Assembly: GCA_043821585.1 (NCBI GenBank)
Contig: JBDRCQ010000015.1
Span: forward strand, 135,341-199,340
Length of the DNA: 64,000 nucleotides
DNA from: an archaeon
GTDB taxonomy: Archaea > Nanobdellota > Nanobdellia > Pacearchaeales > GW2011-AR1
Direction of reading: 5' to 3'
Part shown: positions 14,337 to 17,574 of the stretch, piece by piece
Layout of the letters: every line of letters starts with the position of its first letter
Position numbering within the stretch: the first letter of the stretch is position 1
Notes under the pieces: model-generated
The model's database searches: none
Told to the model about the DNA's origin: nothing
What the model saw: the letters and a program-made list of their open reading frames with translations, nothing else
Made by a program: the position numbers and the translations under genes

Positions 14337-17240
14337 ATGGCTCATGTGAAAAAGCTGGTGATTCAGGGCTTCAAGAGCTTTGCGAAAAAGACTGAGATCC
14401 CGTTTGATCGAGGAATTAACGTTGTAATTGGCCCGAATGGTAGTGGGAAGAGTAATATCTCCGATGCCTTGTGTTTTGTTCTTGGACGGTTGAGTGTTAA
14501 GTCGATGAGGGCGGAGAAGGCTAAGAACTTGATTTTTATGGGAAGCAAGTATATGAGGCCTGGGAAGGAGGCGATGGTGGAAATCGTGTTTGATAATTCT
14601 GATAAAAGCTTTGCTTTGGATACGCCGGAGGTGAGTTTGGCGAGAATTGTGCGTTTGAAAGGCGCTAGTGTGTATAAAGTCAACGGAGAGACAAAGACCA
14701 GAGCGGAAGTAATTGAGACGCTGGGACAGGCTGGAATCGACCCGTATGGGTACAATATTATCTTGCAAGGGCAGATCCAGGCGATTGTGAAGATGCATCC
14801 TGAAGAGAGGAGGAAGATAATTGGAGAAGTTGCTGGGATCTCTGTTTACGAATGGAGAAAGGAGAAATCTCTGAAAGAACTCGATAAAACGGAGGTGCGG
14901 TTGAAAGAAGTTAGTACTATTTTGAGGGAGAGAACCTCTTATTTGAACAATCTGGAAAAGGAGAAGGCGCAGGCTCAACGTTACAAGGATTTACAGTTGA
15001 CAGTGAAGAGATCTAAGGCTTCAATTCTTAAAAGGAAGCATGATGATAAAGTGAAGGAGATCAGTTCAATTGTTAAGACGATTGAAGAAAAAACAGCCCT
15101 AAAAGACAAGAGTGGTGAGAAATCTGAGAAAATTCAACAAGAGATGGAAGGGTTTAGCGAGAAGGTTAATCAGATAAATAAACAGATAAGGGATGCGACT
15201 GGTGTTGAGCAGGGCAAGTTGAGGGAAGAGATTAGCGATCTTAAGGCTGAGCTTGAAGGGTTGAAGGTTAGGAAAGAAGGTTATGAAAACAGAGGGGAGG
15301 AGGTCGATAGGAGAATTAGTGAGATGAAAAAGTCGATCCCTGATTTGGAAAAAGAGATTGCACAATTGCGAGAAGAGAGTCCATTGATGGCTAAGAAGGC
15401 TGCAGAGTTGAAGAAAAAGAAACATGAGTTGGCTGAGCTTGAAAGGGAAAAGAAGAAAGTTTTTGCTGTTAAGTCTGAGTTGATTGCTGTGAAGAATACG
15501 ATAGAAGATCGGAAGCAACAGCTGGCAAGAGTGAATGCTGATGCGGAGTCGCTTGTTGCGCGGATTGAAGAGATTTCTAAGGACTTTGAGTACAATACTG
15601 AAAGCGAATGTATGGAAGCCATTGATTTTTACAAAAAGAGGCTTGCGCAAGAAGAAGACAAGGTAGACTCGTTTCGAGAAGAAGAGCTGAAGAATGAGAA
15701 AGTGGTTTCTGTTTCTGAGACTGAAATTGAAAGAAACGAAGAGATAAAGAAGAAGATTGAGGAGATAGATATTTGTCCGCTTTGCCAGAGCAAGATGACT
15801 CAAGATCATGTGAACCATGTCCTTGGTGAGGCGAATGCGAGAATTTCTAAGGCTAGGGGTGATTTGGAGACTGCTAAAGAAAATTTAGGGAGAATGGAGC
15901 AGTCCTCCGGAGAGTCGCAGAAGAAGACAAACGAGCTTGAAGGGAAATTGAGAAACGCGGAAAAAGAGTTGTCTTCTCATAAGAATGTTGCAGAAAAGAA
16001 GGAGACTCTTAAAAAATATGTTGATGGTTCTGTTGTGATTAAAAAAGAAATTGGGGAATTTGAAACGCGGCAGAGGAGCTTAGAAAAGAAAAGTGATGAG
16101 GTTTCTAAAATTGATGAATTGTATGAGAATAAGATGTTTGAAATCGAGGAGATTTCTTCTAGAACTGAAGAAGATATTGATACAACCTTGCTGTATAAAG
16201 AAAGAGAACTGGAGAAAACTAAGAACATTGTTGAAAGAAGCAAGGGAGATCTTAAAGAAATAAATGATCAAATTGAGGGATTGGGGAATGGGCTCAAAAC
16301 TAAACAAGCGTTGCTGGAAAAGAAGGAAAAGAAAGAGAAGGACTTGAATGAAAGATTCCAGAAGATGTTCCATGAAAGAGACGAGACGCAAAAGAAGTAC
16401 CAGGAGGCAAGTATAAAGCTAACTGAAATCCAGAGCGAAGTTAGACAGATGGAAGATCAGATAAACTACCTAAAAGTCGGAAAGGCGAAGCTGGATGGGG
16501 AGAGGGAAACTGTTGAGATGGACTTGGCAGAATATCAGGGAGTTGAATTGTTACAGGGAAGTTTGAACGTCTTGGAAGATAAGTTGAGGAAGGCGCAGTC
16601 GACCCTCGAAACGATTGGGTCGATAAACATGCGGGCCTTGGAGGTTTATGACGAAGTAAAGAAAGAGTATGATATTGTTCAGGAGAAAGTTGAAACTCTT
16701 GATAAAGAGAAGAATGAGATCATGAAGATAATTGAAGAGATTGATAAGAAAAAGAAGAAGGTTTTCATGAAGACATTTACCGCGATAAATAATTTGTTCA
16801 CTGAGAATTTTACGCGGTTGTCGACTAAGGGCGGGACCGCTTATCTCGAAATTGACAATAAGGAAGAAATGTTTGAGGGCGGGGTGAATATTGTTGTTAA
16901 GCTTTCCAGAGGGAAGTATTTTGATGTTACTTCGCTTTCTGGTGGGGAGCAGACACTTGTTGCGCTGTCCCTTTTGTTTGCCATTCAGGAGTACAAGCCG
17001 TATCAGTTTTACATCCTAGACGAGATTGATGCTGCGCTTGATAAGAGGAACTCTGAGAGGCTTGCTGCACTATTAAGAAGATATATGAAGTCTGGACAAT
17101 ATATAGTTGTGACGCACAACGATGCGATTATCCTTGATTCGAATGTGCTCTACGGAGTTTCGATGCATGAGGGCGTATCGAAAATTTTAAGTTTGCGCGT
17201 GAATGAAGATAATAGTGAGGAAATGAAAAAAGATGGGTGA
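14337..17240 (+). CDS. SMC-family ATPase lacking a hinge, with a central CxxC (zinc-hook-like) motif
   Basis: N-terminal head [38 protein letters not shown]. C-terminal head [36 protein letters not shown]. About 600 aa of K/E-rich coiled coil. CPLC at aa 480-483 of 967. Confidence 0.9.
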   Translation: [967 protein letters not shown]

Positions 17241-17574
17241 TTTATTTGACGGACGAGTCGGTGTTGTTTTTGCGATTTTAGCGGTAGCCTTATTTTTTGG
17301 GGCGTTTCATTTTGGGATTTTTGTTAGGAACATTATCTGGGTTGTTTTCTTTCTTGCTTTTGGTGTGATCTATTTTTGGAATTTTAAAAGAACAGGAGTT
17401 TCAAAGTACCTTGTTTCCTCGATAATATTTTGGTTGGCGGCTGCGTTTGGGTTGTTTAATGTTTTTGTCGAAGCTGTTCCTTGGAGGACGATATGGTTGG
17501 TCACTATAATTCTTTATGTTTTGAGTGGGCCGATTGCGGCATTGTTTAAGAGTTTTGGTTCTAAAGGGGTTTAG
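17233..17574 (+). CDS. 4-TM membrane protein translationally coupled to the SMC-like gene
   Basis: ATGGGTGA start/stop overlap. Four hydrophobic segments. Confidence 0.55.
   Translation: MGDLFDGRVGVVFAILAVALFFGAFHFGIFVRNIIWVVFFLAFGVIYFWNFKRTGVSKYLVSSIIFWLAAAFGLFNVFVEAVPWRTIWLVTIILYVLSGPIAALFKSFGSKGV

Follow-up and report, generated by a model that had tools for sequence, protein, structure and literature searches.

An archaeal SMC protein with a predicted Rad50-type zinc hook in place of the hinge

The closest described counterpart of the protein analyzed here is an artificial one. Bürmann et al. (2017; PMC5344682) replaced the hinge of the Bacillus subtilis Smc protein with the zinc hook of Pyrococcus furiosus Rad50 and found that the resulting chimera, Smc(Zh), supports normal growth with near-normal arm alignment, and came to the conclusion that the dimerization domain's fold is irrelevant to chromosome segregation; the interchangeability of hook and hinge is also the subject of subsequent work (PMC6969161; bioRxiv 10.1101/2020.06.24.160820). 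Here we describe a natural protein of the same general layout, which is encoded by a 967-amino acid (aa) gene within a 64,000-nucleotide (nt) stretch of contig JBDRCQ010000015.1 from an archaeon of the order Pacearchaeales (the entire stretch is hereafter referred to as the window). Most likely, this protein is an SMC ATPase of a DPANN archaeon (Pacearchaeota/Woesearchaeota group) in which the hinge was swapped for a Rad50-type zinc hook in the ancestor of the clade, and it probably works as a chromosome organizer.

Three other groups of proteins are relevant for comparison. In Rad50 itself, each monomer is described as contributing two of the four cysteines that bind zinc at the hook (bioRxiv 10.1101/2020.06.24.160820). 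The ASRP proteins (ClsN/coalescin, Sph1/Sph2) are archaeal members of the SMC superfamily that possess a zinc hook instead of the hinge (Yoshinaga et al. 2022, PMC9389158). Finally, Sussfeld et al. (2025; PMC12153180) reported a cluster of "hinge-less" SMC proteins in marine Actinobacteria-like bacteria for which the CXXC hook is stated to be absent. The SMC proteins of DPANN archaea were placed among the canonical archaeal SMCs by Yoshinaga and Inagaki (2021), with no comment on the hinge. A full-text search of the literature for natural SMC proteins with a zinc hook returned only the engineered chimeras, ASRP/ClsN and the hinge-less bacterial cluster without CxxC; a natural hook-bearing SMC is apparently undescribed.

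Like Smc(Zh), the window protein combines SMC heads and full-length SMC arms with a Rad50-type CPxC hook, and the switch point between SMC and hook (the hook residues are aa 480-483) is close to that in one of the strains from the resource table of PMC5344682, which is designated smc(1-480, Pf Rad50 Zinc hook, 691-1186). Unlike the chimera, which is artificial and bacterial, the window protein is natural, archaeal and conserved across a clade, and has a hook of its own, CPLCQSK[IM]TxxHxxHV. With the canonical SMC of the Smc-ScpAB complex (Pyrococcus 5xei/4i99), it shares the heads, all the ATPase motifs and arms that are collinear almost to the apex, and it groups phylogenetically with the SMCs of DPANN archaea, but it lacks the hinge and is ~200 residues shorter. 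Similarly to the bacterial cluster of PMC12153180, the window protein belongs to the SMC clade and has lost the hinge, the difference being that it is archaeal and contains an invariant hook.

Apex, arms and heads of the window protein

The gene and its parts, as delineated from the open reading frame (ORF), the database matches and the AlphaFold models, are listed below.

14337..17240, + strand: hook-type SMC gene, 967 aa (ORF with matches to SMC_N, TIGR02169 and the Pyrococcus SMC head 5xei)
14337..14834, + strand: ABC ATPase head, N-terminal half, aa 1-166 (AlphaFold predicts a mixed strand/helix fold; alignable with the Pyrococcus SMC head); Arg58 in the KSMRA motif and, around aa 143-148, an LQG(Q) motif are also conserved
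14430-14453, + strand: Walker A motif GPNGSGKS, aa 32-39
14838..15758, + strand: N-terminal coiled-coil arm strand, aa 168-474, ~307 residues (AlphaFold helices; collinear with the arm of hinge SMCs)
15759..15800, + strand: apex loop in place of the hinge, aa 475-488, 14 non-helical residues (segment and full-length AlphaFold models)
15774..15785, + strand: CPLC (C480, P481, L482, C483), presumed zinc ligands, TGTCCGCTTTGC
15801..16820, + strand: C-terminal coiled-coil arm strand, aa 489-828 (AlphaFold helices; collinear with the C-terminal arm of hinge SMCs)
15807..15818, + strand: H491-V-N-H494, where the C-terminal arm helix starts; the counterpart of H491 is the histidine of P. furiosus Rad50 CPVCGRELTDEH (1l8d/6zff alignment)
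16821..17201, + strand: ATPase head, C-terminal half, aa 829-955 (alignable with its Pyrococcus SMC counterpart); also contains the D-loop DAALD and the H-loop H927
16935-16949, + strand: signature motif LSGGE, aa 867-871
17007-17024, + strand: Walker B motif FYILDE, aa 891-896

A first-pass annotation of this DNA had reported the 967-aa ORF (14337-17240, + strand) followed by a 113-aa ORF (17233-17574, + strand), quoted a set of head motifs, and pointed to CPLC at the midpoint of the protein. Both ORFs and all the motifs are present, and CPLC indeed occupies aa 480-483 of 967. The best 120 homologs (57-100% identity) each contain exactly one CxxC, invariably in the form CP[LMIV]C, in agreement with the expectation that this motif is conserved among orthologs, and in full-length homologs of ~950-1080 aa it is located at the midpoint as well. 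The C, P and C of CPxC are invariant not only in these 120 proteins but also in alignments of 109 and 63 sequences. In the 109-sequence alignment, which yields the hook consensus IDxCPLCQSK[IM]TxxHxxHV, the sole invariant residues within aa 372-582 are C480, P481, C483, H491, H494 and V495.

Both profile searches and structure comparison connect this apex to Rad50. Across the hook segments of the family, Rad50_zn_hook (PF04423) was by far the most common Pfam family (28 of 40 segments at E<=0.01; best E-value, 2.8e-6), and the window protein itself scored 19.7 bits against this model at full length (E=7.3e-4) and 24.1 bits as a 116-aa segment (E=3.1e-5). Among the top PDB sequences for the segment profile were the Rad50 hooks of P. 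furiosus (6zff, 1l8d) and human (5gox), with E-values of 0.19-0.74, and the alignment places CPLCqskiteeH over P. furiosus Rad50 CPVCGRELTDEH, which is also mirrored by the family motif CPxC-x3-[IM]T-xEH. The AlphaFold model of the segment (predicted local distance difference test score, pLDDT, 92.6) consists of a helix (2-50), a loop (51-64) and a second helix (65-115). When this model was compared to 350,542 PDB chains using Foldseek, ranks 1 to 3 were taken by Rad50 hooks, namely 1l8d_B, 1l8d_A (TM 0.85, root-mean-square deviation 2.4 A) and 5gox_A, such that the ranking is specific even though the E-values are modest (0.02-0.04). At the level of sequence and predicted fold, the apex is a Rad50-type zinc hook, which substantiates the proposal of the first-pass annotation that a Rad50-like CxxC hook stands where the hinge would be.

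The two histidines that follow the CPLC motif raise the question of whether the apex could instead be an intramolecular mini zinc finger, formed by C480, C483, H491 and H494, that caps the hairpin or binds DNA, with dimerization occurring elsewhere or not at all. The C-x2-C-x7-H-x2-H pattern, with H491 and H494 both invariant in close homologs, is what speaks for such a site. The wider clade tells otherwise: among 194 distinct hook sequences, chosen by a match to the CPxC pattern, the first histidine (C+8 after the second cysteine) is found in 188 but the second one in only 156, the remaining 38 having E, S, K or other residues in its place while the two cysteines and the first histidine persist. 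This lack of clade-wide conservation argues against an obligatory intramolecular Cys2His2 site and agrees with a hook of the Rad50 type, where four cysteines from two chains hold a single zinc. Furthermore, the first histidine is present also in P. furiosus Rad50 CPVCGRELTDEH, the zinc of which is held by four cysteines, and both Pfam and Foldseek point specifically to Rad50 hooks. Thus, we regard the zinc finger as an unlikely alternative to the Rad50-type hook.

The hinge itself is genuinely missing, as originally claimed. The SMC_hinge model (PF06470, Pfam) produced no match in the 967-aa protein even at E<=0.1; given that the same model scores 1e-31 to 1e-34 in relatives, both those of canonical length (P0151, P0154) and those with short arms (P0162, P0202, P0200), the hinge is truly absent. 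Pairwise phmmer alignments delineate the exchanged portion: aa 1-466 and 481-955 of the window protein correspond to residues 1-456 and 696-1166 of P0154 (1166 aa), respectively, and aa 486-955 correspond to residues 681-1142 of P0153. Collinearity with hinge SMCs extends, on the N-terminal side, to about aa 466-478 and resumes, on the C-terminal side, from about aa 481-490, so that the hook occupies the position of approximately residues 456/483 to 681/696 of the hinge SMCs, that is, ~200 residues.

The full-length AlphaFold2 model, built with the family alignment (mean pLDDT 75.5), shows the succession of head (1-166), helices, apex, helices and head (833-955), without a globular domain between the heads. 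The N-terminal arm comprises helices 168-288, 291-331, 334-347, 349-414 and 422-474, and in the two arms together there are eight short helix breaks (289-290, 332-333, 348, 415-421, 590-591, 608-615, 733-742 and 760-766). Short breaks of this kind are normal in SMC arms. The description of the midsection as uninterrupted coiled coil is accordingly too strong with respect to the helices but holds in that no other domain intervenes. Sequence conservation along the arms is uneven: the head-proximal portions (aa 151-210 and 751-810) show values of 0.76-0.88, compared to 0.43-0.65 in the mid-arm, and aa 601-630 of the C-terminal arm are highly conserved as well (0.84). The length of the arm, estimated as 307 residues at ~0.15 nm each, is ~45 nm, next to ~47 nm for the canonical Smc arm according to Bürmann et al.

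Profile comparisons show the heads to be of the SMC type. In Pfam, the 967-aa protein matches SMC_N over aa 4-948 (2.5e-49), and in NCBIfam, it matches SMC_prok_A (TIGR02169) with 558 bits and SMC_prok_B (TIGR02168) with 522.8 bits, in each case in two stretches, the first of which, for TIGR02169, aligns aa 3-476 with profile positions 1-470. Both scores fall below the respective equivalog cut-offs (729.4 and 567.35 bits), a shortfall that fits the missing hinge. In contrast, although the protein resembles Rad50/SbcC in that its antiparallel coiled coil ends in a CPxC hook, with a flank similar to that of archaeal Rad50 (CPVCGRELTDEH), its heads are distant from those of Rad50: the best Rad50 model (NF003034) yields 121 bits against a cut-off of 700 bits, and there is no Mre11/HerA/NurA operon in the window. 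The protein also differs from ASRP/ClsN, given that its heads belong with SMC proper and that the cut-off of the corresponding model (NF045487; 593 positions compared to 967 aa) is missed, with 110.4 bits against 300 bits and the best stretch confined to the C-terminal head (aa 622-926). Altogether, the SMC models outscore the Rad50, ASRP and RecN models about five times.

Among the PDB sequences, the top phmmer matches are Pyrococcus SMC heads (5xei, 2.8e-102), whereas Rad50 heads are found at ~1e-14; the assignment of the heads as SMC-like rather than Rad50-like in the first-pass annotation is therefore supported by Pfam, NCBIfam and PDB searches alike. In an alignment of 63 homologs, the residues G32, P33, N34, G35, G37, K38 and R58 of the N-terminal half and S868, G869, G870, E871, D895, E896, D898, D902 and H927 of the C-terminal half are invariant, indicating that the ATPase is subject to purifying selection. 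In the databases, proteins of this type carry the name "chromosome segregation protein SMC".

Distribution and origin of the hook-type SMC

The hook pattern DxCPLC[QLK][ST][KA][IM] was detected in 199 species-level reference genomes. The 80 loci that were retrieved out of these 199 come from metagenome-assembled genomes (MAGs) that bear the label Nanoarchaeota, Pacearchaeota, Woesearchaeota or just archaeon (Candidatus Pacearchaeota belongs to the archaeal kingdom Nanobdellati), except for two hook-SMC genes in MAGs with bacterial labels, one on a contig assigned to Candidatus Colwellbacteria (L023) and the other on a contig assigned to "bacterium" (L083), both of which are probably mis-binned DPANN contigs. 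When 1.84 billion cluster representatives were searched exhaustively, full-length hook-type proteins made up at least 22 clusters (50% identity level), which are 38-57% identical to the query; next come hinge-bearing SMCs of 1078-1200 aa, with 31-39% identity. This breadth bears on the most trivial explanation, namely that the gene is an artefact of assembly, or a pseudogene in decay that has lost the hinge through an internal deletion. The shorter length of the protein is all that would suggest such an origin; given that the same architecture recurs throughout these genomes and clusters, that the catalytic and hook residues are invariant and that the reading frames are intact, we give this explanation practically no credence.

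In a neighbor-joining tree of the heads, 22 hook sequences form a single clade (96 of 100 bootstrap replicates) that also includes four forms of ~780-804 aa, to the exclusion of 87 other SMC representatives. The latter comprise 68 proteins of canonical length and 19 shorter ones without CxxC; the hinge was confirmed by Pfam in the five of them that scored, and two that were tested contain neither hinge nor CxxC (P0209, 838 aa, and P0265, 919 aa). The heads group with SMC and, by the model scores described above, not with Rad50, as the first-pass annotation held. By head distance, the nearest named hinge SMCs are those of Candidatus Woesearchaeota (P0153, P0166). In addition, the hinge-type locus L085 has an RNase HII gene just upstream of the SMC gene and, downstream of it (16306-17613), a gene homologous to that of the ~419-aa surface protein (see below). 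The combination of these two shared neighbors with the origin of the closest hinge SMCs from related DPANN lineages suggests orthology rather than paralogy and points to a DPANN ancestor in which the orthologous SMC gene underwent one replacement of the hinge by the hook, as opposed to a separate paralogous family.

The four ~780-804-aa forms inside the hook clade (P0140, P0141, P0142 and P0148) have intact heads, with neither hinge nor CxxC, which suggests secondary loss of the hook along with shortening of the arms. The named members in two clusters of such ~800-aa forms are Pacearchaeota, and these proteins come nearer to the hookless bacterial cluster of PMC12153180 than the window protein does. 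Outside the hook clade, there are mini-SMCs with a clear SMC_hinge and arms far shorter than the canonical ones (P0200, 830 aa; P0162, 963 aa; P0202, 961 aa), and P0216, P0219 and P0222 were grouped with these short-armed hinge-bearing relatives. Overall, the midsections and arm lengths of SMC proteins seem to be unusually variable among the relatives of the window protein.

About one in ten hook-SMC genes is interrupted by an intein of ~520 aa, containing LAGLIDADG and intein splicing domains, that sits in the P-loop of the Walker A motif, following GPNGSGK. The intein exists as two distinct alleles that start with CLTGE... and (S)CSYDT..., respectively, and both end with ...AHN|SN. The carriers include P0005, P0009, P0030, P0037, P0044, P0073, P0093, P0112, P0121 and P0127 among the proteins, and L006, L031, L055, L057, L075 and L079 among the loci. 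In one MAG, two full-length hook-SMC genes that are 61% identical were identified on different contigs (L018, CAYZSY010000006.1; L046, CAYZSY010000024.1). These represent either a mixed bin or two paralogs, and in the latter case, a heterodimeric hook-SMC is conceivable.

Gene neighborhood and possible function

The first-pass annotation noted the absence of kleisin, ScpB, Mre11, HerA and NurA genes near the SMC gene. Indeed, Pfam detected no ScpA (PF02616), ScpB (PF04079), Mre11, HerA or NurA among the 67 ORFs of the window, and the same is the case within +-10 kb in the Pfam-annotated relatives L001-L004 and in the Pfam annotation of loci L085-L088. Likewise, none of these families was recognized among the recurrent neighbor clusters of 77 loci, which were in part identified by Pfam. 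The missing adjacent kleisin says little about the function of the hook protein because, by Pfam annotation, three hinge-type loci from among the closest hinge-bearing relatives, L085 and L087 (both Woesearchaeota-labelled) and L088 (unlabelled), have no adjacent ScpA either. In canonical SMC proteins, the head-proximal arm binds the N-domain of the kleisin; the conservation of this portion of the arm in the hook family is compatible with a retained kleisin.

Several other candidates were considered and discarded. The ORFs at 26199-26996 and 6243-7334 of the window and at 6233-7093 of L088, which were examined as possible kleisins, have no meaningful PDB match, and a further kleisin candidate, at 2259-2945 of the window, looks like a secreted protein. 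A 938-aa ORF (50399-53215) that could have been a second SMC or Rad50 is a class I aminoacyl-tRNA synthetase. Several small clusters that first appeared to be conserved neighbors are antisense shadow ORFs of real genes.

The most conserved neighbor of the hook-SMC gene, present in 62 of the 77 loci, encodes a protein of ~412-419 aa (window 11111-12370, + strand) with an N-terminal signal-like segment, a C-terminal transmembrane anchor and a faint match to the immunoglobulin-like FixG_C domain; this gene is located either upstream, in the same direction, or downstream, in convergent orientation. RNase HII is a neighbor in 55 of the loci, AP endonuclease 2 (window 8524-9297) in 47, a DUF7557 protein of ~81-85 aa (window 10744-11001, - strand) in 41, and a Toprim-domain protein in 27. 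RNase HII, AP endonuclease 2, the Toprim-domain protein and the DUF7557 protein constitute a conserved DNA-metabolism neighborhood around the SMC gene.

Such a neighborhood, with replication factor C (RFC) also encoded in the window and no kleisin or ScpB gene nearby, could be taken to mean that the hook protein is an SMC-derived paralog that acts in the manner of Rad50 or ClsN (end tethering, repair or formation of compartments) without a kleisin and is not the condensin of its lineage; hook-mediated dimerization, as in Rad50 and ASRP/ClsN (PMC9389158), would be in keeping with this. Most of the evidence runs in the opposite direction. The heads and arms are far nearer to SMC than to Rad50 or ASRP; the recurrent neighbor clusters, as far as Pfam identified them, include no recognizable Mre11-type gene; the closest hinge SMCs come from related DPANN lineages, one of them sharing two conserved neighbors with the hook loci; the three hinge-type loci similarly lack an adjacent kleisin; and the part of the arm that binds the kleisin in canonical SMCs is conserved. 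A Rad50- or ClsN-like paralog accordingly seems improbable to us, and a hook-bearing chromosome organizer remains the favored interpretation.

Several considerations weigh against this interpretation. Both scores of the window protein with Rad50_zn_hook are just under the Pfam gathering cut-off of 24.3 bits, and the PDB sequence and fold matches have marginal E-values (0.02-0.7), which is no surprise with a helical hairpin this short. Zinc binding and dimerization at the apex are properties that we infer, and the AlphaFold models are all of monomers. The tree was constructed by neighbor joining on 340 head columns, not by a model-based method. Finally, there is no kleisin or ScpB gene in the 64-kb window or near the SMC genes of relatives (+-10 kb).

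Under the favored scenario, the hinge dimerization domain of ~200 residues would have been replaced by a Rad50-type zinc hook of ~14 residues in the ancestor of the clade. Two protomers, each contributing two cysteines, would coordinate one tetrahedral Zn2+ and so form a constitutive homodimer at the tips of the arms, and the ~45-nm arms would zip into a rod. ATP-driven engagement and release of the heads would then act on DNA as in Smc-ScpAB, the role of the complex being chromosome folding and segregation and not the processing of double-strand breaks. The normal growth supported by the engineered Smc(Zh) makes a hook-SMC functionally plausible.

A more far-reaching possibility, the odds being slightly against it, is that a large DPANN clade has a zinc-hook-dimerized protein as its only SMC, the hook having possibly been captured from Rad50 by recombination, and that some ~800-aa descendants have lost the hook, too. 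The role of the SMC hinge beyond joining the arms has long been debated, with DNA binding, a DNA entry gate and communication with the heads all under discussion. If this possibility holds, the hinge would be naturally dispensable for chromosome organization, and the series from hinge to hook to neither would provide natural material for testing the role of the SMC dimerization domain. The clade-wide substitution would provide an independent line of evidence, from evolution, that SMC function does not depend on this domain's fold, a natural counterpart of the engineered hinge-to-hook swap made in one bacterium, Bacillus (PMC5344682).

From a practical standpoint, the hook proteins blur the textbook diagnostic whereby a hinge denotes SMC and a hook denotes Rad50, and current annotation labels them as SMC without flagging the missing hinge. 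They also offer compact natural proteins for structural work. Should the clade lack kleisin or Rad50, questions would arise on the minimal machinery of chromosome maintenance in reduced, symbiotic archaea.

The downstream membrane protein and other features of the window

The gene immediately downstream of the SMC gene was given a prominent place in the first-pass annotation.

17233..17574, + strand: 113-aa protein with four transmembrane segments; its start overlaps the SMC stop (synteny is local only)

The overlap between the SMC stop and the start of this gene is exactly as reported, 8 nt at 17233-17240 (ATGGGTGA), and would be consistent with a membrane-tethered SMC machine that includes the translationally coupled four-transmembrane protein. 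The pair is also retained beyond the window, in four relative loci: in L001 and L007 (probably the same genome), L005 and L006, the SMC gene overlaps in the same way with a downstream gene for a homolog of the 113-aa protein, the L001 homolog being 50% identical. In every other locus examined, however, this partner is not next to the SMC gene. Of the 73 evaluable loci, 37 have no ORF on the same strand within 150 nt downstream of the SMC gene; in 25, the downstream ORF contains fewer than two hydrophobic segments, and in 11, two or more. In L004, the SMC gene and its downstream neighbor are on opposite strands. A 148-aa downstream gene in L002 and L003 was considered as a diverged version of the membrane partner and rejected, its 21% identity being spurious and the number of hydrophobic segments less than two.

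Overlaps similar to that between the SMC gene and its neighbor (-4, -11 and -14 nt) are found elsewhere in the window between unrelated gene pairs on the same strand, the genome being a compact one, and the 113-aa protein matches no Pfam family at its cut-off. A membrane-tethered SMC machine therefore appears very unlikely, far more so than either the zinc finger or the Rad50-like paralog, and the 113-aa protein is an incidental neighbor restricted to close relatives, not a conserved partner. Thus, of the overall interpretation initially proposed for this locus, the SMC-type ATPase with a hook for a hinge stands, whereas the coupling to a membrane protein, which called for synteny in relatives, does not extend past the window and the four relative loci.

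Apart from the SMC locus, several features of the window are worth mentioning. Two adjacent AAA+ genes (3350-4516 and 5067-6032, both on the - strand) encode proteins with RFC lid and C-terminal domains and are probably the large and small subunits of replication factor C, an archaeal replication context. A 369-aa protein (9290-10399, - strand) combines sigma-70 region 4 (1.9e-19), a domain unexpected in an archaeal genome, with an XRE-type HTH_3 domain. When the window (1-64000) is divided into 32 bins of 2 kb, 30 of these show a positive GC skew regardless of gene orientation, with a near-monotonic rise of the cumulative skew; a compositional bias between the strands, for instance that of a single replichore, may account for this. 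Finally, two genes (31604-33823, - strand, and 37571-38731, + strand) encode large proteins with putative copper-binding motifs of the Cu-binding_MopE family.

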